This document shows positions 1,741 to 10,361 of a stretch of DNA of 16,144 nucleotides, piece after piece (the stretch's first letter is position 1; each line of letters begins with the position of its first letter). A program made the translations under genes and the position numbers. The notes beneath the pieces were generated by a model that did no database searches, was not told where the DNA came from, and was given only the letters and a program-made list of their open reading frames with translations. The DNA is from Gemmatimonadales bacterium (GTDB lineage: Bacteria; Gemmatimonadota; Gemmatimonadetes; Gemmatimonadales; GWC2-71-9): assembly GCA_035637235.1 (NCBI GenBank), contig DASPXO010000025.1, positions 1 through 16,144 of the forward strand, written 5' to 3'.

Positions 1741-3024
1741 ATGGACTTGTCTCCCGTCACCGTCGTCGCCCTCGCGGCCGTCGCGCTGGGCCTTGTGGGC
1801 GCGCTCGTCGGAATGGTCCGGTCGCTCATCGTGATCTGCATGCCGAACGAAATGGTGGTGGTCAGCGGCCGGCGTCGGGTCACGGAGGACGGGCGGAGCG
1901 TCGGGTACCGGGTGCTGCACGGCGGGCGCACGCTGCGGGTCCCGATCATCGAGAAGGTCTCGCGCATCGATCTCCGGACGATTCCGATCGAGGTGATGAT
2001 CAAGAACGCCTACTCGAAGGGCGGGATACCCCTGATCGTGCAGGGCATCGCCAACGTGAAGGTGTGCGCGCGCGAGCCGATCTCCTACAACGCGGTGGAG
2101 CGGCTGCTCGACAAACCGTTCGACGAGATCATGCAGATCGCGAAGGATACGCTCGAGGGCAACCTGCGCGGCGTGCTGGCGACGCTCACGCCCGAGGAAG
2201 TCAACGAGGACCGCCTCAAGTTCGCCCAGCGGCTGATCGAGGAGGCCGACGAGGACCTGAAGAAGCTGGGGCTCGAGCTCGACACGCTGAAGATCCAGAA
2301 CGTCACGGACGACGTGAAGTACCTCGACTCGATCGGGCGGACGCGCACCGCGGAGATCTTGAAGATCGCGCGCGTCGCCGAGGCGCAGCGCACCTCCGAG
2401 GCGGAGCAGACCGAAGCGTCGTCGCGCCAGGCGGCCCAGATCGCGAAGATCCAGGCGGACCTGAAGATCACGGAGGAGAACAACCGGCTCCGCGTCCGCA
2501 AAGCCGAGCTCGAAGCGGAGGCGCTGGCGCGGGAGAACGAGGCGCAGGTGGCCGGCGAGAAGGCGAAGGTCAAGGCGCAGCAGGATCTCCAGGCCGCGCG
2601 CATCGACCTCGAGGCCAAGCGCGTCGAGGCCGACGTCGTCGTGCCCGCCCGGGCCGACCGAGAGGCCTCGGAGCTGCGCGCCAAGGGCGCCGCGGCGTCG
2701 ATCCTCGAGAACGGCAACGCCAACCTCGCCGTGCTCGACCGCATGATCCAGCTCTACAGCAAGGCGGGGAACGAGGCCGAGCGGATTTTCATCCTGAACA
2801 TGCTGCCGGAGATCATCAAGGAACTGGCGGGCTCGGTGGAGCAGATCAAGATCGACAAGCTGGCGGTGATCGACTCGGGGAACGGCGCCGGCGTCGCTTC
2901 CGCGGCGGCGCAGTTTCCCCAGGCGATCATCAAGCTGACGGAGCAGATCGAGGGCGCGACCGGGATCAACATCCTGTCGCGGCTGCAGAAGCCGGCCGAG
3001 CAGCCGAAGCGTGCCGAGAAGTAG
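1741..3024 (+). CDS. Flotillin-like SPFH/band-7 protein (YqiK/FloT family)
   Basis: 427 aa. An N-terminal TM helix is followed by an SPFH core (VVSGRRRVTEDGRSVGYRVLHGGRTLRVPIIEKVSRIDLRTIPIEV...GGIPLIVQGIANVKV) and a long E/A/K/Q-rich coiled-coil (flotillin EA repeats). SD aagagg lies 5 nt before ATG 1741, which is 10 nt after the NfeD stop. Confidence 0.9.
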   Translation: MDLSPVTVVALAAVALGLVGALVGMVRSLIVICMPNEMVVVSGRRRVTEDGRSVGYRVLHGGRTLRVPIIEKVSRIDLRTIPIEVMIKNAYSKGGIPLIVQGIANVKVCAREPISYNAVERLLDKPFDEIMQIAKDTLEGNLRGVLATLTPEEVNEDRLKFAQRLIEEADEDLKKLGLELDTLKIQNVTDDVKYLDSIGRTRTAEILKIARVAEAQRTSEAEQTEASSRQAAQIAKIQADLKITEENNRLRVRKAELEAEALARENEAQVAGEKAKVKAQQDLQAARIDLEAKRVEADVVVPARADREASELRAKGAAASILENGNANLAVLDRMIQLYSKAGNEAERIFILNMLPEIIKELAGSVEQIKIDKLAVIDSGNGAGVASAAAQFPQAIIKLTEQIEGATGINILSRLQKPAEQPKRAEK

Positions 3025-3475
3025 TCTCGCTCTCCTCGCGTTCGCCGCCGCCTGCGGACCCACCGATCCCTGCCGCTCCCCCCCGATGCATCTCCGGAGC
3101 CGCTACGCGCGAGCATATGTCGGCCACTGGCGCGTGGCGCACGGGGACACGCTCACGCTCCCCGAGATGGGCGACCGGTTCAAGCTCAGCGACGTCGTGC
3201 TCGACAGCGCCCGGATCGCGGTGGGGCGAGCGTGTCACTTCAAGGGGCGGCTCGTGTTCCAGGTCCCGCGCGCCGAGACCCTCGCGGTGACGTGGTTCGG
3301 CCAACCCGAGCGGGCGCTCATCTTCGGCTGGCCGGCGGAGCTGGGGCCGTTCGCCGGGATCGAGGCGGTCCGCGTGGGCGATTCGCTCGCGGGTGCGATT
3401 CTGTTCGACGAGCGGTTGGGCGTGCGGGTGCCCCCCGGGGTCACGGCGCGCTTCGTCGCGGGCCGGGCACGGTGA
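3011..3475 (+). CDS. Hypothetical lipoprotein (154 aa)
   Basis: A GTG start at 3011 overlaps the flotillin stop (3022-3024) by 14 nt. The N-terminus SSLALLAFAAACGPTDP has lipobox AAAC. GC3 is high from about codon 30 onward. No recognisable domain. The start is uncertain; the next in-frame ATG (MHLRS...) would remove the signal peptide. Confidence 0.5.
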   Translation: MPRSSLALLAFAAACGPTDPCRSPPMHLRSRYARAYVGHWRVAHGDTLTLPEMGDRFKLSDVVLDSARIAVGRACHFKGRLVFQVPRAETLAVTWFGQPERALIFGWPAELGPFAGIEAVRVGDSLAGAILFDERLGVRVPPGVTARFVAGRAR

Positions 3476-3483
3476 AGTATCTT

Positions 3484-3499
3484 TGACCTCACCCCCTGA
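3484..3499 (+). repeat. Copy 2 of exact 16-nt motif TGACCTCACCCCCTGA, preceded by TTTGACC
   Basis: Same 16-mer as 1022-1037. Here CCTCA-ccccc-TGAGG forms a 5-bp hairpin whose 3' arm overlaps the SD gaggaga of the DinB_2 gene (ATG 3510). Confidence 0.6.
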
Positions 3500-3509
3500 G
3501 GAGAGCAAC

Positions 3510-4031
3510 ATGCCCTTCACCGCCGCCGAGCGCGCCGCCCTGATCGAGCGCTACGCCCACGGTCCCGCGCTCCTGAAGCGCGCTCTCGCCAGGGTCCCCG
3601 CCGAGGCCCTCCAATGGAAACCGGCTCCCGGCAAGTGGTCGGCCCACGAGATCGTCGTCCACTGCGCGGACTCCGAGACCAACGCCCACATGCGGCTGCG
3701 CTACCTGCTCGCCGAGCCGGACCCCATGATCGTGGGATACGACCAGGACCGCTGGGCCGCGGCGTTCGCCTACCACGGGCACCCGATCGAAGTCGCGCTC
3801 GCGACCGTCGAGGCCGTGCGGGCCAACACGGTGCCCCTGCTGAAGCGGATGACCGACCGGGACTGGGGCAAAGTCGGCCGGCACACGGAGTCCGGCCGCT
3901 ACGCCGTGGAAGACTGGCTCGCCATCTACGCCGAGCACCTCGAGAAGCACTCGCGCCAGATCGAGCGAAACCTCGCCGAGTGGAGCGACCGTCCCCCCCC
4001 TCCGCGACGCGGCGAGGGGGCCAGGGGGTGA
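3510..4031 (+). CDS. DinB/YfiT-like (DinB_2 superfamily) putative metal-dependent enzyme
   Basis: ATG 3510 is preceded by SD gaggaga and is in frame with ORF 3393..4031. Sequence MPFTAAERAALIERYAHGPALLKRALARVPAEALQWKPAPGKWSAHEIVVHCADSETNAHMRLRYLL...YAEHLEKHSRQIE carries the His triad pattern of DinB_2 proteins. The C-terminal tail is Pro/Arg/Gly-rich. Confidence 0.85.
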   Translation: MPFTAAERAALIERYAHGPALLKRALARVPAEALQWKPAPGKWSAHEIVVHCADSETNAHMRLRYLLAEPDPMIVGYDQDRWAAAFAYHGHPIEVALATVEAVRANTVPLLKRMTDRDWGKVGRHTESGRYAVEDWLAIYAEHLEKHSRQIERNLAEWSDRPPPPRRGEGARG

Positions 4032-4036
4032 GGCCG

Positions 4037-4432
4037 ATGAGGGGATTCCTGTTTCGCCTGCTCATCACCGCCCTCGGCCTGTGGGCCGCCGCCACCATCG
4101 TTCCCGGGGTCACGATCCGCGGCGTCGGGAACCTGATCGTCGCGGCGCTGCTGCTCGGGCTGGTGAACGCGGTCATCCGACCGGTCATCCTCATCCTGAC
4201 CCTTCCGTTGACGGTGCTCACGCTGGGGCTGTTCATCCTGGTCGTGAACGGGATTTCGCTCGCGCTCGTGGCGTGGCTGATGCCGGGGTTCACCATCGCC
4301 GGGCTGCCCCCGGCGATCCTCGGCTCGATCGTGGTCGGGCTGACCAGCTGGTTCGCTTCCGCGTTCGTCGGCGGCTCGGGCCGCATCGAGCGGATTCGCC
4401 ACATCGAGGTGAGCGGGCGCCGGCTCGATTGA
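4037..4432 (+). CDS. DUF360 / phage-holin-4_2-like small membrane protein (YvlD-like)
   Basis: ATG 4037 (MRGFLFRLLITALGLWAAATIVPGVTIRGVGNLIVAALLLGLVNAVIRPVILILTLPLTVLTLGLFILVVNGISLALVAWLMPGF...) gives four predicted TM helices, typical of DUF360. This is the later part of ORF 3614..4432. A G-rich SD (gggggtgagg) lies upstream. Confidence 0.8.
   Translation: MRGFLFRLLITALGLWAAATIVPGVTIRGVGNLIVAALLLGLVNAVIRPVILILTLPLTVLTLGLFILVVNGISLALVAWLMPGFTIAGLPPAILGSIVVGLTSWFASAFVGGSGRIERIRHIEVSGRRLD
4348..4432 (+). repeat. Direct-repeat copy A (3' end of the intact DUF360 gene), partner at 5968-6051
   Basis: See pseudogene entry 5968..6051. The two copies bracket a 1.5-kb segment carrying the DUF423 and GT87-like genes. 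Confidence 0.7.
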
Positions 4433-4800
4433 TGGACCGGCTCTTCGCGGGGCTTGGCGCCGCGTCGGCGTTGCTCGCGGTGGCCGCCGGCGCGTTCGGC
4501 GCGCACGCGCTGCGCGCCCGGACGCCCGCCGACCTCCTCGCGGTGTTCGAAACCGCAGCCCGCTACCAGATGTACCATGCGCTGGCGCTGCTCGCCGTTG
4601 CCTGGGCGGTGACGCGCTGGCCCGTGCCTGCTGTGCGCGCCGCCGGGTGGCTGTTCGTCGCCGGCACGGTGACCTTCTCCGGCTCGCTCTATCTGCTCGC
4701 GCTGACCGGCGTGCGCGCCTTCGGCGCCGCCACGCCCTTTGGCGGGCTCGCGTTCCTGGCAGGCTGGCTCGCGCTGGCGGTGGGCGTGTGGCGGGGCTGA
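4432..4800 (+). CDS. DUF423 family membrane protein (YgdD-like)
   Basis: ATG 4432 overlaps the DUF360 stop (tgATG). Sequence MDRLFAGLGAASALLAVAAGAFGAHALRA...YQMYHALALLAVAW...VTFSGSLYLLALTG...TPFGGLAFLAGWLALAVGVWRG matches the conserved GAFGAH, Y.xH.LA, FSGSLY.LAL and TP.GG..FLAGW blocks of DUF423. It lies in the frame of ORF 4081..4800. Confidence 0.85.
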   Translation: MDRLFAGLGAASALLAVAAGAFGAHALRARTPADLLAVFETAARYQMYHALALLAVAWAVTRWPVPAVRAAGWLFVAGTVTFSGSLYLLALTGVRAFGAATPFGGLAFLAGWLALAVGVWRG

Positions 4801-5933
4801 CCCCGCGGGAGCGGCGCATCCTCGTCGCGCTCGGGGGACTGTACGCCCTTGTCAATACGTTCATCGGCGTCCACTCCGGCGGCGATCTCGTGTTCCACCT
4901 GCGCCTGGCCGAGCGCCTGATGCAGGGTCTGCCGCTGTACGCGGACTTCGACACGGCGCGTGGCATGCCGTGGCCGCCGTTTGCGATATTCGCGTTGACC
5001 CCGTTTGCGCTCCTGGCTCGCCTCAGTTTGCCGGTCGCCAAGGGCTTGTGGGCGGTCGGCAACGTGGCGCTGTTCGGCTGGTGCGTGGTGCGCGCGTATT
5101 CCCGCGTCGGCCGCTGGCTCCCCGTCGTACTCGCCGTCGCCGCCGTGGCCCAGCCGCTCCAGAGCAACTTCCAGCACCTGAACATCAACATCGCGCTGCT
5201 GGGGCTGGTCGTGTTCGCCATGGACGATGTCGAGCGGGGGCGCGACATGCGGGCGACACTGTGGATTGGCGTCGCCACCGCGCTCAAGGGCTACCCCGGA
5301 GCGATCTTTCTCTATTTCCTCGCGCGCGGCCGCTGGCGGCCGCTGGCCGCGGGCCTCGTCGCCGCGGTCGGGCTCAGTTTCCTGGTGATGCTTCCCGCCG
5401 GTCTCGGGGGAGCCGCGATCGTCCCCGACTACGTACACCTCGCTCTGACCGCCCAGAGCACGAAGGCGCTCGCGGGCCAATCGATCGGCGGGCTCGTCGC
5501 CCGTTTGGGGGGAGGCGTTGCGACCGCAGTGGCGCTCGACCTCATCGCCTCCGGTGTGGTGGCCGCGGCGCTGTGGCGCCGCCGGCGGCTCCAGTCGGGT
5601 GCGGCGGCGTCCGACCTCGGGATGGCCGCGGTGCTCGCCGTGCTGCTCGCGCCGCTCGACCGGCTCCACTACTACGTTCTCGGATTCCCGGCGTGGACCG
5701 ACACGTTTGGCCGCCCCGCACCGGCGCGCGGGCGCACGGCGTGGTTCACCGCGCTCGCCGTCGGGGCATTCCTCACGTCGGGGATGCTGAGCCATATCCA
5801 CGGCCCTCTTCCCGCGGTCTTGTGGATCATTCGCAAGAATACCTACAACCTCGGCGCGCTGATCCTGCTCGGCATTCTCGTGATCCAGCGCGCCCGCGTC
5901 CCCGAACCTCCTCCGGCACCGCAACCTCCATGA
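4788..5933 (+). CDS. Polytopic membrane protein, DUF2029 / glycosyltransferase-87-like (function tentative)
   Basis: Frame of ORF 4647..5933. A GTG at 4788 overlaps the DUF423 stop by 13 nt. The 5' part of the ORF-track ORF is the DUF423 gene read out of frame, so the true start must be near 4788 (alternatives: CTG 4794, or ATG giving MQGLPLYADF about 4920). At least 8 hydrophobic segments, high GC3, Pro-rich C-terminal tail PEPPPAPQPP. The GT87/DUF2029 assignment is by general resemblance only. Confidence 0.6.
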   Translation: MAGLTPRERRILVALGGLYALVNTFIGVHSGGDLVFHLRLAERLMQGLPLYADFDTARGMPWPPFAIFALTPFALLARLSLPVAKGLWAVGNVALFGWCVVRAYSRVGRWLPVVLAVAAVAQPLQSNFQHLNINIALLGLVVFAMDDVERGRDMRATLWIGVATALKGYPGAIFLYFLARGRWRPLAAGLVAAVGLSFLVMLPAGLGGAAIVPDYVHLALTAQSTKALAGQSIGGLVARLGGGVATAVALDLIASGVVAAALWRRRRLQSGAAASDLGMAAVLAVLLAPLDRLHYYVLGFPAWTDTFGRPAPARGRTAWFTALAVGAFLTSGMLSHIHGPLPAVLWIIRKNTYNLGALILLGILVIQRARVPEPPPAPQPP

Positions 5934-5967
5934 CACCTGCCCCACTCTTGCTGTCGGCGCTCTCCTC

Positions 5968-6051
5968 CGGTTCGCGTCCGCGTTCGTCGGCCGCTCGGGC
6001 CGTATCGAGCGGATTCGCCCCATCGAGGTGACGGGGCGCCGCCTCGACTGA
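5968..6051 (+). pseudogene. Remnant of the 3' end of a second DUF360-family gene (28 codons plus stop), about 90% identical to 4348..4432
   Basis: Direct nucleotide alignment of 5968-6051 with 4348-4432 shows about 9 mismatches in 85 nt. The in-frame translation RFASAFVGRSGRIERIRPIEVTGRRLD* compares with WFASAFVGGSGRIERIRHIEVSGRRLD*. Most substitutions are synonymous and the stop codon is conserved. No start or upstream ORF was found. Confidence 0.55.
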
Positions 6052-6181
6052 GGGAAGCCCGGAAGATCTCGAAGAAGGCGCGTCTCGACTTGTAAGGCAG
6101 CAACCACAAAGCTGCCACAAAAATCCCCGCGGCTCGGCGCGCGCACGCTCCGCGCCGTGCCGCCGTGCCTTCCTTCCCCAT

Positions 6182-6217
6182 GTGCGAAAACGCCTTAGGC
6201 GGTGCGAACGCGCCTTA
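6182..6217 (+). promoter_or_regulatory. Two direct repeats GTGCGAAAACGCCTTA / GTGCGAACGCGCCTTA (14/16 identical), 20 nt centre to centre, 80-115 nt upstream of the giant MPE/PKD gene
   Basis: Read directly from the sequence (6182-6197 and 6202-6217). The two-helical-turn spacing is typical of a dimeric or tandem-binding transcription factor site. It lies in a 240-nt non-coding leader of locally lower GC. Confidence 0.4.
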
Positions 6218-6244
6218 CACGCGAGGCACGGCGCGTGCTCCAGG

Positions 6245-6273
6245 GGGGTCGCAAGCCCACGCCCTGCGACCCC
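6245..6273 (+). other. 9-bp stem-loop ggggtcgca / 11-nt loop / tgcgacccc, 22 nt upstream of ATG 6295
   Basis: Perfect inverted repeat read from the sequence. No U-tract follows. It could be an mRNA 5'UTR structure. Confidence 0.35.
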
Positions 6274-6294
6274 TTGAGCCGAGCTGCCCACTAG

Positions 6295-9200
6295 ATGACG
6301 CCGATCCGCTCCATCCGCTCCGTTGTTCGCGTGCTGTCAACCATCGCCGCCCTCTACGTCGTCGAGAGCTGTCGCGACTACCAAGGGCCCGGGTCGCCGA
6401 CCGGGGCGCCGGATCGGTCCGCGCCCGGCTTCGAAGTCTCCCCAGCGCCCCTCCCGGTGACGCTCGTGGGCGCGGGGAACATCGCTAGCTGCAAGAACAC
6501 CAACGACGACGCCACGGCTGCCCTTTTGGACGGGATCCCGGGGACCGTGTTCGCGCTCGGGGACAACGCCTACGACAACGGCACCCTCACCCAGTACAAC
6601 ACCTGCTACAACCCGAACTGGGGACGGCACAAGACCCGCACCCAGCCGGCGGTGGGCGACCGCGACTACAAGACCACCAACGCGGGCGGCTACTTCGGCT
6701 ACTTCGGCAGCGCCGCGGGCGATCCGACAAAGGGCTACTACAGCTACGAACTCGGCGCCTGGCACATCGTCGTGCTCAACAGCAACAGCTCCAAGGTCCC
6801 GACCGCCGCGGGCTCGGCCCAGGAGCAGTGGCTGCGCGCGGACCTCGCCGCCCATCCCGGGCGCTGCACCCTGGCCTACTGGCACCACCCCCGGTTCAGC
6901 TCCAAGGACAGCCCCAACAGCGCCATCACCCCGCTGTGGAACGCGCTCTATGCCGCCGGCGTGGACGTGGTGGTGAACGCCCACTACGCCTTCTACGAGC
7001 GGTTCGCGCCCCAGACCCCGGCCGGCGCCGCCGATGCGGCGTTTGGCATCCGGGAGTTCATCGCCGGTACGGGGGGCGGGGAAACCGGGTCGTTCGGCAC
7101 GGTCCGGGCGAACAGCGAGGTCCGGAGCAGCGGCACGCCGGGCGTGCTCAAGCTCACGCTCGACGCCGACGGCTACGCCTGGGAGTTCGTGCCGATCGCC
7201 GGCAAGACGTTCCGCGACTCGGGGACCGGCGGCTGCCATGGCGCGCCCCCGCTGTCCGTGAACGCCGGGGCCGATGTCACGGCCAGCCCGGGGGACACGG
7301 TGAAGCTCGCCGTCACGCTCACCGATCCCGCGAACGCCCCCCCGTGGACATACACGATCCTGTGGGGCGACGGCGGCTCGAGCAACGGAACCGCCCAATC
7401 CTCGCCGATCATCGCCTCGCACGTGTACTCGGCGCTGGGCCTCGACAGCGTACGCGTCGCCGTCACGAGCAACGTGGGAGGGTCCGGCTCGGACTCACTC
7501 GCCGTGCAGGTGGTCGTGCGGCCCACGTCGGTCGTCCTGGTAGGCGCCGGCGACATCGCCGACTGCACCAGGAACAGCGACTCTCTCACCGCGAACCTGC
7601 TCGACGGCATCCCGGGCACCGTGTTCACGGCGGGCGACAACGCTTACCCCGACGCCTCGAGCAGCGACTACACCAACTGCTACCACCCGACTTGGGGCCG
7701 GCACAAAGCCAGGACCCGACCGGTCCCGGGCAACCACGAGTACAGCACCTCCGGCGCCACACCGTATTACAGCTACTTCGGCGCGGCGGCCGGCGATCCC
7801 ACGAAAGGCTATTACAGCTACGACCTCGGCGATTGGCACATCATCGCCCTGAACTCGAACATCGCGTACGGTGCGGGGTCCGCCCAGGAGCAATGGCTGC
7901 GTGCCGACCTGGCGGCAAGCACGAAGCGCTGCACGCTCGCCTACCTGCATCATCCCCTCTTCAGCTCCGGCACTCTGGCCGCGGCCGGGACACAGGTCCT
8001 GTGGCAGGACCTGTACGTCGCCGGCGCCGAGATCGTGGTCGCCGGGCACGAGCACAACTACCAGCGCTTCGCTCCCGAGACCCCGACCGGCGTGGCCGAT
8101 CCGGTCTACGGTATTCGCGAATTCATCGCGGGGATGGGCGGCGCGGGCCATTTCAGCGTGGGAACAGCCCTGGCGAACACCGAGGTGCAGGAGGACCAGA
8201 CCTATGGGGTCCTCAAGCTGACGTTGTACGCCGCCCGCTACGACTGGGCGTTCGTCCCCGTCGCCGGCAAGACCTTCACGGACTCCGGCAACGAGACGTG
8301 CCATGATGCCCCGGGAGCCGTGAATCACGCGCCCATCGCCGCTGCCGGCGGACCCTACGCCGGCGTGGAGGGCGGCGCGGTCAGCTTCATCGGGAGCGGC
8401 TCCTCGGATCCCGACGGTGACGCGCTGACCTACGCCTGGAGCTTCGGCGACGGCGGCACCGGTAGCGGCGTCAACCCCAGTCACAGCTACGCCGACAACG
8501 GCAGCTACACCGTGACGCTGGCCGTCACCGACGCGCGCGGTGCGTCCAGCTCGGCGGCCACCATCACTGCGACGGTCGCCAATGCGGCGCCCTCGGTCAA
8601 CGCGGGAGCCAATCAGGCCATCGGTGTGGGCGCGAGCTACACGCTCGGCGCCGGCTTCAGCGATCCCGGCACCAACGACGCTCCCTGGGCGTACTCGATC
8701 GACTGGGGTGACGGCTCGTCGCCGACGACCGGGAGCACGACCAGTCAGTCGAGCGCCATCACGGCCACGCACCCATACCCTGCGGCGGGCAGCGACACCG
8801 TGCGCGTGACGGTCACCGACAAGGATGGCGCAACGGGCTCGGGACAGCTCACCGTGACGGTGAGCGACGCGAATCAGCCGCCCACCGCCACGGCCGGCGG
8901 TCCGTATGCCGGCACGGAGGGGACGGCGGTCAGCTTCGACGGTAGCGGCTCGTCGGACCCCGATGGGGACGCTTTGACCTACGCCTGGAGCTTCGGCGAC
9001 GGCGGCACGGGCAGCGGCGTGAAACCCAGCCACAGCTACGCCGACAACGGCGCCTATTCCGTGACGCTCACCGTCACCGACGCCCGCGGGGCGTCCGGCT
9101 CGGCGGCCACGACCACCGCCACGATCGGCAACGTGGCGCCCTCGGTCAACGCGGGCGTAAATCAGACCGTCACCGCGGGGACGAGCGTCACGCTCGATGC

Positions 9201-10212
9201 CGCCTTCAGCGATCCCGGCGCGAACGACGCGCCCTGGTCGTATTCGATCGACTGGGGCGACGGCTCGTCGCCGACGACCGGGGGCACGTCCACGCAGTCC
9301 AGCGCCATCACGGCCACGCATCCATACTCTGCGGCGGGCAGCAACATCGTGCGCGTCACGGTCACGGACAAGGATGGCGCAACCGGCTCGGGACAGCTCA
9401 CCGTGACCGTCACGCAGCCGGGGACGAGCGTCACGCTCGTCGGGGCCGGCGAGGTGACACGGTGCGACAACACGAAGGACGAGGCGACCGCGCTGCTGCT
9501 GGACGACATCCCTGGGACCGTCTTCACCACGGGCGACAACATCCGCGCCAGCGGGTCGCTGTCCGATTTCACCTCGTGCTACGATCCCTCGTGGGGCCGG
9601 CACAAGGCGAGGACGCGGCCGTCGCTCGGCGCGTATGAGTATCAGACCGCCGGCGCTGCGGGGTATTTCGACTACTTCGCGCTCGCCGGCGGAGAGCGGG
9701 ACAAGGGTTACTACACCTACGAGCTCGGCGACTGGCACATCGTCGTGCTGAACAGCAACATCGACATGACCGTCGGCTCCCCGCAGGAGCAATGGCTCCG
9801 CACCGACTTGGCGGCGAGCACGAAGCGCTGCACCCTGGCGTACTGGGCTCACCCCCGATTCAGCTCCTACTCGACGGCCGTGCGCTCGGGCGTCAAGCCG
9901 CTGTGGGATGACCTCTACGCCGCGGGCGCCGAGGTGGTGCTCAACGGGCACTACCGGCTGTACGAGCGGTTCGCCCCGCAGACCCCGGATGAAGTGGCCG
10001 ACCCGCAGAACGGCATCCGTCAATTCACCGTCGGAACGGGCGGGCATGGAGTCGATGCCTTCGGCACCACCCCCCGGCCGAACAGCGAAGTGCGGATCAG
10101 CGGCACGTACGGTGTGCTGCAGCTCACGCTGGGCGACGGCGTCTACTCCTGGCAGTTCGTCCCGGTGGCGGGCCAGACGGCGACCGACTCGGGAAGCGGG
10201 ACTTGCCACTAA
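6295..10212 (+). CDS. Secreted 1305-aa multidomain protein with three purple-acid-phosphatase-like metallophosphoesterase (MPE) domains, of which only the middle one is intact, interleaved with PKD and PKD-like domains
   Basis: ORF-track ORF with ATG 6295, N-terminal signal peptide (MTPIRSIRSVVRVLSTIAALYVVESC) and high GC3 throughout. MPE domain 2 (about nt 7528-8310) carries GDIAD, GDNAY, GNHEY, LHHP and GHEHNYQRF, i.e. the PAP motifs GDxxY / GNHE / xxH / GHxH. Domain 1 (about 6457-7255) reads GNIAS / GDNAY / GDRDY / WHHP / NAHYAFYERF. Domain 3 (about 9430-10209) reads GEVTR / GDNIR / GAYEY / WAHP / GHYRLYERF. Each domain ends F-VP-AGxT--DSG---CH. Between them are PKD domains (VSFxGSGSSDPDGDALTYAWSFGDGGTGSG...YTVTLxVTDARGAS) and PKD-like WGDG-containing domains. 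Confidence 0.9.
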   Translation: MTPIRSIRSVVRVLSTIAALYVVESCRDYQGPGSPTGAPDRSAPGFEVSPAPLPVTLVGAGNIASCKNTNDDATAALLDGIPGTVFALGDNAYDNGTLTQYNTCYNPNWGRHKTRTQPAVGDRDYKTTNAGGYFGYFGSAAGDPTKGYYSYELGAWHIVVLNSNSSKVPTAAGSAQEQWLRADLAAHPGRCTLAYWHHPRFSSKDSPNSAITPLWNALYAAGVDVVVNAHYAFYERFAPQTPAGAADAAFGIREFIAGTGGGETGSFGTVRANSEVRSSGTPGVLKLTLDADGYAWEFVPIAGKTFRDSGTGGCHGAPPLSVNAGADVTASPGDTVKLAVTLTDPANAPPWTYTILWGDGGSSNGTAQSSPIIASHVYSALGLDSVRVAVTSNVGGSGSDSLAVQVVVRPTSVVLVGAGDIADCTRNSDSLTANLLDGIPGTVFTAGDNAYPDASSSDYTNCYHPTWGRHKARTRPVPGNHEYSTSGATPYYSYFGAAAGDPTKGYYSYDLGDWHIIALNSNIAYGAGSAQEQWLRADLAASTKRCTLAYLHHPLFSSGTLAAAGTQVLWQDLYVAGAEIVVAGHEHNYQRFAPETPTGVADPVYGIREFIAGMGGAGHFSVGTALANTEVQEDQTYGVLKLTLYAARYDWAFVPVAGKTFTDSGNETCHDAPGAVNHAPIAAAGGPYAGVEGGAVSFIGSGSSDPDGDALTYAWSFGDGGTGSGVNPSHSYADNGSYTVTLAVTDARGASSSAATITATVANAAPSVNAGANQAIGVGASYTLGAGFSDPGTNDAPWAYSIDWGDGSSPTTGSTTSQSSAITATHPYPAAGSDTVRVTVTDKDGATGSGQLTVTVSDANQPPTATAGGPYAGTEGTAVSFDGSGSSDPDGDALTYAWSFGDGGTGSGVKPSHSYADNGAYSVTLTVTDARGASGSAATTTATIGNVAPSVNAGVNQTVTAGTSVTLDAAFSDPGANDAPWSYSIDWGDGSSPTTGGTSTQSSAITATHPYSAAGSNIVRVTVTDKDGATGSGQLTVTVTQPGTSVTLVGAGEVTRCDNTKDEATALLLDDIPGTVFTTGDNIRASGSLSDFTSCYDPSWGRHKARTRPSLGAYEYQTAGAAGYFDYFALAGGERDKGYYTYELGDWHIVVLNSNIDMTVGSPQEQWLRTDLAASTKRCTLAYWAHPRFSSYSTAVRSGVKPLWDDLYAAGAEVVLNGHYRLYERFAPQTPDEVADPQNGIRQFTVGTGGHGVDAFGTTPRPNSEVRISGTYGVLQLTLGDGVYSWQFVPVAGQTATDSGSGTCH
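8345..9420 (+). repeat. Intragenic tandem duplication, 2 x about 549 nt (183 codons), each unit encoding one PKD plus one PKD-like domain
   Basis: Unit A (from about 8345, gccggcggaccctacgccggcgtggag...) and unit B (from about 8894, gccggcggtccgtatgccggcacggag...) align along their full length at an estimated 85-90% nucleotide identity. The protein units are GGPYAGVEGGAVSFIGSGSSDPDGDALTYAWSFGDGGTGSGVNPSHSYADNGSYTVTL... and GGPYAGTEGTAVSFDGSGSSDPDGDALTYAWSFGDGGTGSGVKPSHSYADNGAYSVTL... Confidence 0.85.
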
Positions 10213-10215
10213 AGG

Positions 10216-10308
10216 CTAGGGGCTAAGGAGCTAAGGGGCTAAGGGGCTAAGGGCCATGGCTGGGTTCTAGCCCTGTCCCGAGCCCCTAGCCCCTAGCCCC
10301 TAGCCCCC
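10216..10308 (+). repeat. Palindromic minisatellite: (GGGGCTAA)-like x 4-5 on the + strand (10216-10253), a 29-nt spacer, then (CCCCTAGC) x 3 (10283-10308)
   Basis: Sequence ggctaggggctaaggagctaaggggctaaggggctaaggg ... cccctagcccctagcccctagccccc. The two arms are imperfectly complementary, giving a long hairpin or cruciform. Each arm also provides at least four G3-4 runs on one strand (left arm on +, right arm on -), i.e. G-quadruplex-capable tracts. It sits between the stop of the giant gene (10212) and the DSD1-like gene (10362). Confidence 0.7.
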
Positions 10309-10361
10309 AGTTACACTCCACGGGGTGTGAAGCCAGGAACCACGACGGCCAGGGACTTCCC

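Follow-up and report, generated by a model that had tools for sequence, protein, structure and literature searches.

A DUF360 locus in a soil Gemmatimonadales bacterium as a mosaic of recipient and donor sequence, probably formed by acquisition of two neighbouring genes from a related lineage

Integrative elements can enter a gene at its 3' end and bring a replacement for that end, as e14 does in icd of Escherichia coli and islands do in tRNA genes. Between conserved core genes, hotspots of gene content are turned over by homologous recombination with relatives. Homology-facilitated illegitimate recombination is known from Streptococcus pneumoniae, Acinetobacter baylyi and Pseudomonas stutzeri and from conjugation of E. 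coli; it usually deletes recipient DNA and uses 3–10 bp of microhomology (PMC3240628). Also in E. coli, duplications of 109–950 bp have been obtained by single crossover with a circle (PMC3240628).

The locus described here lies in a stretch of 16,144 nucleotides from a Gemmatimonadales bacterium, the whole of which we call the window, and all of its features mentioned below are on the + strand. An intact but mosaic DUF360 (Phage_holin_4_2) gene of 131 amino acids (4037..4432; Pfam PF04020, E=7.8e-30) follows a DinB_2 gene (3510..4031; Pfam PF12867, E=1.5e-18) that forms a left flank of the recipient type defined below. The DUF360 stop overlaps the start of a DUF423 gene (TGATG; 4432..4800; Pfam PF04241, E=1.8e-29), and this is followed by a GT87 glycosyltransferase gene (4788..5933; Pfam PF09594, E=1e-26). 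The right flank, also of recipient type, holds a gene for a metallophosphatase/PKD protein of 1305 amino acids (6295..10212; Pfam Metallophos and PKD). A scan of 3000-6400 found no terminator or promoter, and the fold of 6040-6110 was no more stable than its shuffles.

An earlier note, made on this DNA from the sequence alone, had reported that the 3' end of the DUF360 gene recurs downstream at about 90% identity. A repeat search of the window confirmed this: 4350-4436 and 5969-6055 form a direct repeat of 87 nt with 90% identity, the first copy of which comprises the last 27 codons and the stop of the DUF360 gene plus 4 nt past the stop. The repeat scored 117 bits with blastn, far above the chance level of 41 bits given by the best same-strand repeat in 100 dinucleotide-preserving shuffles. 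Two details of the earlier description need correction. The second copy does not start immediately after GT87; 35 nt separate the GT87 stop (5933) from 5969, and these are the 5' end of another gene. The statement that seven of nine differences are synonymous was overstated, since over the 83 coding bases the two copies differ at 8 bases in 7 codons, four of them synonymous (GCT/GCG, CGC/CGT, CGG/CGC and GAT/GAC) and three not (GGC/CGC, Gly>Arg; CAC/CCC, His>Pro; AGC/ACG, Ser>Thr).

The close relatives L091 and L092 have an empty site at this position. In both, DUF423 and GT87 are missing and a single DUF360 gene leads directly into the sequence that, in the window, is found after the second copy, or remnant (5969..6051; 27 codons plus stop). 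This includes the native intergenic region (6052..6294), which follows the DUF360 stop in the empty-site alleles. Positions 1-565 of L091 match window 3869-4436 at 96% and positions 463-1262 match window 5953-6771 at 91%, with the 5' part of the metallophosphatase/PKD gene directly downstream of DUF360. Positions 1192-1539 of L092 align to window 5953-6323 in the same layout. The divergence of L091 and L092 from the window is of similar relative size on both sides (4% versus 8.6%, and 8.7% versus 16%), which suggests that both flanks of the window share one history. The two relatives were reached via the closest DUF360 proteins, and the flank 6052-6294 was found only there; it had no match in the 80 loci from a scan of species-representative genomes. 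An exact-pattern scan of a metagenome collection for the junction between remnant and flank returned only 3 contigs, none of them a new empty or filled allele. Homologues of the N-terminal 220 amino acids of the metallophosphatase were found in L099-L101 at 71-75% protein identity, with no DUF360 match upstream of them.

Comparison with these relatives and with loci of a second, donor type showed that the window is a three-part mosaic, of recipient type up to 4408, of donor type from about 4413 to 5968, and of recipient type again from 5969. The first segment (3869-4408) shares 97.2% of its bases with L091 and 94.9% with L092, and 3508-4408 has about 81% identity to the donor-type loci. The middle segment is 91.0% identical to L093 over 4409-5933, 94.8% to L060 over 4798-5647 and 90.9% to L094 over 4798-5968. 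The third segment is 94.3% identical to L091. The donor-type stretch 4413..5968, which is missing from L091 and L092, begins with the final ~20 nt of DUF360, continues with DUF423 and GT87 and ends 13 codons into an M24 peptidase gene. L093 has DUF360, DUF423 and GT87 in one contiguous stretch, and the nearest relatives of the GT87 gene are donor-type loci. For DUF423, sliding-window identity was 90-97% to L060 versus 70-87% to L030 and L039.

At the left joint of the mosaic, recipient and donor sequence meet through a homologous crossover in register, which falls between 4408 and 4413 and thus within the reading frame of the intact DUF360 gene. Informative sites up to 4408 were 69 recipient and 5 donor, and after it 0 recipient and 4 donor (Fisher p=9e-5); sliding identity changes over at the same place (4408|4413). 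The last recipient-type site is 4408 (GAG versus GAA in the donor), and donor type starts with sites 4413-4414, where the window has AGC like L093 and L060; this places the crossover in the interval 4409..4412. In alignments with L091 and L092, the sequence just before it (4350..4408) is of recipient type like theirs, with one private synonymous change (GCT). The working DUF360 gene has a donor-type end of ~20 nt, and the recipient's own end sits past the insert.

At the other side, donor homology continues beyond the GT87 stop into the start of the M24 gene and stops at 5968. L094 and L095 align with the window up to this position and have there a gene start (MTPVTLLLS...) that matches M24; a full-length homologue of this gene in L022 matches Pfam Peptidase_M24. 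The window retains its truncated 5' end of 13 codons (5930..5968), which continues as a chimeric ORF of 33 codons to 6031. A three-way comparison of the right joint gave donor ...GCTCCTCCTCC|AGGCAC, recipient ...CACCAGCT|GGTTCGCG and window ...GCTCTCCTCC|GGTTCGCG, so that donor M24 codon 13 meets recipient DUF360 gene position 314 at 5968..5969. This joint appears to be illegitimate, with at most 2-3 nt shared at 5968|5969, although with donor proxies that are only 91-95% identical the exact joint bases are uncertain. In blastn against some relatives the remnant seemed to extend to 5953, and we rejected this extension: the added bases come from the donor M24 signal-peptide region, and only 8 of the 16 positions in 5953-5968 match DUF360. 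In recipient coordinates the right joint is upstream of the left one by 59 nt. Therefore, 59 nt of recipient sequence are present twice (4350-4408 = 5969-6027), and no recipient DNA is missing in comparison with L091.

The resident DUF360 gene thus appears to have originally ended in what is now the remnant at 5969-6051, its 3' end having been displaced 1.6 kb downstream. The remnant is of recipient type at 12 of 13 informative sites and, together with the downstream flank, is collinear with the single DUF360 gene of L091 and L092. It is non-coding and decaying. The reading frame is kept, and so is the stop codon, as the earlier note had stated for the latter, and the remnant has neither a start codon nor an ORF of its own in the DUF360 frame. 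Three substitutions are private to it (5992, 6003 and 6020), two of them non-synonymous (Gly>Arg and His>Pro) and the third synonymous; that at 5992, Gly>Arg, is still polymorphic among assemblies. Two non-synonymous and one synonymous private changes fit the decay expected of a remnant. The synonymous bias does not imply, as had been proposed, that the second copy evolved as coding sequence at its present location; the 3' differences between the copies are differences between donor and recipient alleles. Annotators should not label the remnant as a gene, and the 33-codon ORF after GT87 should be treated as a chimera.

Our best explanation for the observed mosaic, its two joints, the empty site and the decay is that about 1.56 kb of donor DNA recombined into the DUF360 locus and displaced the old 3' end, which we consider probable. 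The resident locus would have had the arrangement DinB-DUF360-intergenic-metallophosphatase/PKD still kept by L091 and L092, and would have acquired the ~1.56 kb from a related Gemmatimonadales lineage with the arrangement DUF360-DUF423-GT87-M24 peptidase, as in L093, L060 and L094. On the left, the incoming DNA would have recombined in register with the resident DUF360 gene, the crossover being resolved in the interval from 4408 to 4413. On the right, where it ended at codon 13 of the donor M24 gene, it would have been joined illegitimately to position 314 of the resident DUF360 gene. The duplicated 59 nt and ~24-28 nt of orthologous donor tail would then make up the 87-nt repeat. The functional DUF360 gene would now end in donor sequence with the TGATG overlap with DUF423 kept, and the old end after GT87, untranslated in its previous frame, would gather neutral changes. 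This was probably a single event, whose molecular path would be akin to homology-facilitated illegitimate recombination, or to a template switch into taken-up DNA and back. Against this explanation, the classical form of such recombination usually deletes recipient DNA and has 3-10 bp of microhomology (PMC3240628), where the window has a duplication and at most 2-3 nt. The closest donor proxies are only 91-95% identical and the true donor is not among them. The direction of change follows from parsimony; in place of a gain, there could have been a loss of the cassette from L091 and L092 by recombination between the repeats. The far right flank is covered by no long recipient-type or donor-type contig and, because of this, one event is not separable from two. 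The earlier reading that the cassette was inserted by homologous recombination at the DUF360 3' end is correct in essence, except that homology is confined to the left joint and the right one appears to be illegitimate.

Several other histories can be weighed against this acquisition. The window derives from a short-read metagenome assembly, which might raise the suspicion of an assembly artefact or a chimeric contig. We give this almost no credence because the repeat was found in ten independent assemblies (the window and 9 of the 9 others long enough to reach it), the same structure having been assembled independently in samples from three archives (NCBI, ENA and JGI). The source metagenomes include those of WNFU, WNGA and WNGF and of JGI 3300012204, 3300012355 and 3300012358. 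The filled-site copies in these other assemblies have 0-8 positions that differ from the window over 4037-6294, and the empty-site contigs, which are 4-9% different from the window, represent other genomes rather than collapsed repeats. A second DUF360 paralog after GT87 that was truncated to its 3' end, as the earlier note had suggested, would account for the kept frame and stop codon. However, what directly adjoins the remnant on its 5' side is the M24 gene start and not DUF360, and the remnant with its flank is collinear with what is the sole DUF360 gene of L091 and L092. A nucleotide-profile search found a second DUF360 gene in 0 of 61 other species-level loci, and extra DUF360 pieces only in the species of the window and, as an unrelated internal fragment, in L011. 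The truncated paralog is thus unsupported and highly improbable.

The remaining alternatives keep the transfer and change its route or timing. A donor fragment could have circularised, with M24 codon 13 joined illegitimately to DUF360 position 314, and then integrated in the manner of Campbell by one homologous crossover in the DUF360 tail, so that the homology was duplicated. When a circle integrates by a single crossover, the standard outcome is an insert between direct repeats of the homology, and the 87-nt repeat brackets the insert exactly. Such a crossover predicts reciprocal hybrids, with the remnant of donor type upstream of the crossover, yet it is of recipient type at 6 of 6 informative sites, at which L093 and L060, two independent proxies of the donor, have the same bases. 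The model would need either a co-conversion of the heteroduplex that left both copies of recipient type, or a donor resembling the recipient there, and we regard this route as unlikely. A history of two events would have donor-type DUF423-GT87-M24 replace the whole variable region through homologous crossovers in DUF360 and further right, after which an L091-like fragment (DUF360 tail, intergenic region and metallophosphatase gene), anchored on its right and joined illegitimately on its left, entered M24 and deleted it. This fits textbook homology-facilitated illegitimate recombination, in which insertion is accompanied by deletion of recipient DNA (PMC3240628), and it accounts for an M24 gene cut at codon 13 and a wholly recipient-type remnant. 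Nonetheless, it invokes two transfers where one suffices, the equal relative divergence of both flanks from L091 and L092 fits one resident background, and no donor-type sequence is known right of 5968; we judge it improbable. The acquisition may also have occurred just as in our best explanation but earlier, so that cassette and repeats were ancestral to the window, L091 and L092 and the latter two lost the cassette by recombination between the repeats. The 87-nt repeat, at 90% identity, is a possible substrate for deletion, and a crossover between its copies before 4413 would restore the exact L091/L092 sequence. This seems very unlikely in that two lineages, including the more distant L092, must both have lost the cassette or share a loss, neither has the three private changes of the remnant or any donor-type base, and one gain is more parsimonious.

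Downstream of DUF360, the interval up to an alanine-racemase-like gene varies strongly across the order, with 16 gene arrangements in 51 Gemmatimonadales species inside a conserved frame of hyp129-DUF360 ... alanine-racemase-like gene. The comparison with relatives that the earlier note had suggested does therefore show variation downstream of DUF360, and its reading of a scar at a variable site is borne out by the empty-site relatives, the breakpoint in the repeat and this variable interval. The site is not flanked by DUF360 genes as had been proposed; its left boundary is DUF360 and its right boundary an Ala_racemase_N/D-serine-dehydratase-like gene. When all loci were searched for further scars with relaxed protein matching, only an M24 fragment in L057 was found. 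Because each version of the interval holds some of the same few genes in a set order, differential loss may account for much of the variation. Tentatively, the interval could be a true hotspot at which soil Gemmatimonadales exchange a small envelope-related gene set. It is possible, though doubtful, that this set (DUF423, the mannosyltransferase-like GT87, M24 peptidase and methyltransferase) was lost and then regained from relatives repeatedly. If so, recombination would make use of the conserved DUF360 tail and of the joints at which stop and start overlap, and the window would be one regain, with filled, empty and donor-type populations co-occurring in related soil samples.

Base-level resolution of a natural gene acquisition is rare in uncultured bacteria, and here the recipient state, the donor-type state and the product are all at hand with both junctions readable. 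On our best explanation, a conserved gene end would have sufficed to import two neighbouring genes from a lineage about 19% divergent, and the event would have duplicated recipient DNA and not deleted it. No new mechanism and no new type of genetic element is revealed.

Known mobile elements were considered as sources of the insert, which encodes DUF423 and GT87 only. The Pfam lists of genes within 10 kb contain no integrase or transposase. An integron gene cassette was rejected because there is no inverted repeat at the insert ends among the 25 longest pairs listed and no integrase nearby, and an integrase-borne element because there is no integrase or recombinase in or beside the insert. Transposons typically make target-site duplications of about 2-14 bp. 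The duplication here is 59 nt and there are neither a transposase nor terminal inverted repeats, and a transposable element was likewise rejected.

As with e14 in icd, the incoming DNA brings its own 3' end, the target gene stays intact, and the old end is displaced past the insert and differs mainly at silent sites. Unlike e14, there is no integrase, att core or mobile-element gene, and the insert consists of two ordinary chromosomal genes that adjoin DUF360 in many relatives. The conserved frame around a variable interval resembles gene-content hotspots, but the interval draws its content, in order, from the same few genes (DUF423, GT87, M24 and methyltransferase) and not from unrelated accessory or mobile genes. 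The locus also resembles Campbell integration in having an insert between direct duplicates, of which the upstream copy completes a gene and the downstream copy is a dead fragment. It differs in that there are no reciprocal hybrids, the first copy switching at 4408|4413 and the remnant being of recipient type on both sides. Homology-facilitated illegitimate recombination shares with the locus one homologous end in a shared gene, another end joined to unrelated recipient sequence and an insert of ~1-1.5 kb, the difference being that here 59 nt of recipient DNA are duplicated, none is deleted, and microhomology is at most 2-3 nt. The locus is a well-resolved case of a known process and an ordinary footprint of gene exchange.

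The repeat search of the window returned two direct copies of 87 nt with 90% identity, at 4350–4436 and 5969–6055, which comprise the final 27 codons and stop of the DUF360 gene plus 4 nt further. This match scored 117 bits with blastn, whereas same-strand repeats reached at most 41 bits when the whole window was shuffled 100 times with its dinucleotides preserved, so the repeat of the DUF360 3′ end described in the earlier note is real. The gene names used there were borne out by Pfam: DinB_2 (3510–4031), DUF360 (Phage_holin_4_2; 4037–4432), DUF423 (4432–4800), whose start overlaps the DUF360 stop as TGATG, GT87 (4788–5933), and a 1305-aa metallophosphatase/PKD protein (6295–10212). The repeated segment is C-terminal to the Pfam domain of DUF360, yet it is highly conserved among relatives. 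The second copy (5969–6051; the remnant) has neither a start codon nor a listed ORF in its frame. Seven of about nine differences between the copies had been counted as synonymous, which was too generous; 8 bases differ in 7 codons, four of them synonymous and three not.

An identical DUF360 protein is encoded by 11 contigs in assemblies from NCBI, ENA, and JGI. Ten listed contigs have at least 99.7% identity to the window over 3400–6400, and the remnant is present in every one of these that extends that far. Because the structure was assembled independently in samples from three archives, an assembly artefact is ruled out. One strain-level contig (L005) has a G>A change at its position 3168 (window 4790), by which DUF423 codon 120 becomes a stop and GT87 loses its GTG start; for GT87 the gene caller chose a 347-aa product. 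The acquired genes may thus be starting to decay in some members of the population.

The closest DUF360 proteins (95% and 98% identity) are on two short contigs, L091 and L092. L091 1–565 aligned with window 3869–4436 at 96% and L091 463–1262 with window 5953–6771 at 91%, and L092 showed the same layout. Both contigs carry DinB, DUF360, an intergenic region, and the metallophosphatase gene in that order, with one DUF360 tail; DUF423 and GT87 are absent from both. Since they diverge from the window by 4–9% and more, they represent other genomes and not collapsed assemblies. L091 and L008, a contig with the site filled, are from the same metagenome assembly. By these alignments, the remnant and its downstream flank (5969–6294 onward) are the native DUF360 end and downstream region, as in L091 and L092.

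Sliding identity showed that up to about 4400 (DinB through DUF360) the window is nearest to loci L030 and L039 and less like L060, a locus with the order DUF360-DUF423-GT87-M24 that we use as a proxy for the donor. From about 4400 on, it is 90–97% identical to L060 and only 70–87% to L030 and L039. The same switch was seen with L093, a donor-type locus where DUF360, DUF423, and GT87 are arranged as in the window. By segment, the sequence up to 4408 is 97.2% identical to L091 (3869–4408) and 94.9% to L092 (3508–4408), compared with about 81% for the donor type (3508–4408). Positions 4409–5968 are absent from the recipient type and are 91.0% identical to L093, 94.8% to L060 (GT87 part), and 90.9% to L094, also of donor type. 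For 5969–6771 identity to L091 is 94.3% and a donor-type comparison is not applicable. At DUF360-gene positions that separate L091 from L093, the window agreed with L091 at 69 sites and with L093 at 5 up to 4408; past it, the window agreed with L093 at 4 sites and with L091 at none (Fisher p=9e-5). L093 and L060 are mutually identical through the DUF360 tail. The left joint is an in-register crossover between 4408 and 4413.

On the right, alignment of contigs L094 and L095 to the window covered 4798–5968, ending 35 nt past the GT87 stop. In both, a further gene begins after GT87 (ATGA overlap, MTPVTLLLS...), identified as M24 by a tblastn match; the full-length homologue matches Pfam Peptidase_M24. 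The window retains 13 M24 codons (5930–5968) and then continues as recipient DUF360 from gene position 314. With the joint (5968/5969) marked by a slash, the donor reads ...GCTCCTCCTCC/AGGCAC, the recipient ...CACCAGCT/GGTTCGCG, and the window ...GCTCTCCTCC/GGTTCGCG. At most 2–3 bases are shared, and this three-way comparison marks the right joint as apparently illegitimate. A chimeric 33-codon ORF (5930–6031) joins the M24 start MTPAPLLLSALSS to an out-of-frame DUF360 tail. It retains the donor ATGA stop/start overlap with GT87 and could be translated by coupling, although the product is probably a junk peptide.

In recipient coordinates the right joint (position 314) precedes the left joint (position about 372–376), so 59 nt of recipient sequence are present twice, at 4350–4408 and 5969–6027. 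The other 24–28 nt of the repeat pair a donor tail with a recipient tail. This anatomy explains the pattern of differences between the copies. Those in the 3′ part are allelic (AGC/ACG, CGG/CGC, GAT/GAC, and TGATGG/TGAGGG just beyond the stop), with the intact gene of the L093 and L060 type and the remnant of the L091 and L092 type. In the 5′ part, the intact gene has one private synonymous change. Three changes are private to the remnant: Gly>Arg and His>Pro, both at conserved positions, and one synonymous. Gly>Arg (5992) is still polymorphic, with the ancestral G in 3/9 assemblies. The remnant looks like a dead fragment in neutral decay.

With one genome scanned for each species, 80 loci were obtained, of which about 65 belong to Gemmatimonadales. 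Mapping the window proteins onto these loci revealed a conserved frame of hyp129, sometimes DinB, DUF360, a variable interval, and an Ala_racemase_N/D-serine-dehydratase-like gene. The interval (loci L011–L072, L077, and L081) ranges from 1 nt to 5.9 kb, with 16 arrangements among 51 species loci, and its genes are in every case drawn, in a fixed order, from DUF423, GT87 (one or two), M24 peptidase, and methyltransferase. Within the interval (4433–10361 in the window), a metallophosphatase/PKD gene occurs only in the window species and L091/L092. The interval may serve soil Gemmatimonadales as a hotspot dedicated to the exchange of envelope-related genes, a tentative idea that we regard as somewhat doubtful. 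Searching all loci with a nucleotide profile of the DUF360 gene uncovered no second DUF360 gene in any relative. This removes the first of two readings in the earlier note, that a second DUF360 paralog had been truncated to its 3′ end.

Apart from the window species, L011 alone yielded an extra DUF360 piece in the profile search, an unrelated internal fragment. This 149-nt piece (L011:4633–4781) is 100% identical to positions 200–348 of the DUF360 gene on its own contig and sits in frame inside GT87, in place of about 235 nt; the cause is either very recent ectopic conversion or chimeric assembly of the MAG. L057 has another deletion scar in this variable interval, a lone M24 peptidase fragment (10000–10125; residues 321–362, 60% identity) that lies between the genes for GT87 and the methyltransferase. 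Two tandem GT87 genes follow DUF423 in L060 and L094; the window and L093 have the second only, fused directly to the DUF423 end. Both GT87 starts share TGAC(A/C)CC(G/C)CGGGAGCG (window 4760–4830; L060:1868–1940 and 2975–3045; L093:2200–2272), which suggests that the first paralog was deleted through recombination between the paralogs' 5′ ends.

Other elements were also observed. A hairpin element, G+C-rich and about 40 nt long (core CCCCCTCTCCG...CGGAGAGGGGG), occurs twice in inverted orientation, at 1025–1066 (−) and 3990–4033, and is also found in L091 and L092. The former copy (1018–1072) has a fold z=−2.9. The latter extends the C terminus of DinB by 12 aa (to 173 aa; relatives match only the first ~161 aa) and separates DinB from DUF360, genes that abut or overlap in L030 and L039. 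A CCCCTAG heptamer run (10276–10307) just 3′ of the metallophosphatase/PKD gene forms an inverted-repeat pair with 10198–10229. Within the 1305-aa protein are three diverged metallophosphatase modules and several PKD domains, with internal DNA repeats (families D1–D6); gene calling split the homologous region into two consecutive genes in the more distant contigs L099 and L100.

The locus is a recipient-donor-recipient mosaic with one homologous joint, one illegitimate joint, a 59-nt target duplication, and an intact hybrid gene, all of which we infer to have arisen via a single event. DNA from a related lineage would have paired on its left with the resident DUF360 gene, and its right end would then have joined, or a primer/template switch occurred, slightly upstream in the recipient. 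The second reading in the earlier note, insertion of the cassette via DUF360 3′ ends, is largely correct given the empty site and the homologous left joint, but it does not hold for the right joint. When an insert is flanked by duplications, the usual source is one crossover with a circular molecule (PMC3240628), which favors a Campbell-type origin. However, that origin predicts a donor-type remnant upstream of the crossover, and the remnant is recipient type at 6/6 informative sites there; co-conversion or an unusual donor would therefore be needed, and we consider a Campbell-type origin unlikely. It is similarly unlikely that the interval was replaced and the metallophosphatase gene later re-acquired via right-anchored illegitimate recombination; this history requires two transfers, and the divergence from L091 and L092 is in the same proportion on both flanks. 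L091 and L092 could also have lost the cassette through the repeats, a less parsimonious course.

In outcome, this locus is like e14 in icd and similar elements, which supply a replacement gene end and push the original one aside. Unlike e14, the cassette consists of two ordinary chromosomal genes that are beside DUF360 in many relatives. No integrase or transposase was found in the Pfam matches of the insert or the Pfam lists for genes within 10 kb, and no att core, attC-like structure, or terminal inverted repeat (among the 25 longest inverted-repeat pairs listed) was found. The single event is similar in operation to homology-facilitated illegitimate recombination. We do not class it as a typical case because that process normally deletes recipient DNA and uses 3–10 bp of microhomology (PMC3240628), whereas here recipient DNA was duplicated; about 2–3 shared bases at most are seen at the right joint. 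The case is unusually well resolved, since the recipient and donor-type states can be compared with the product and both joints can be read. The most fitting description of the locus is a scar of homologous plus illegitimate recombination at a gene-content hotspot, and the event is an instance of known recombination processes.
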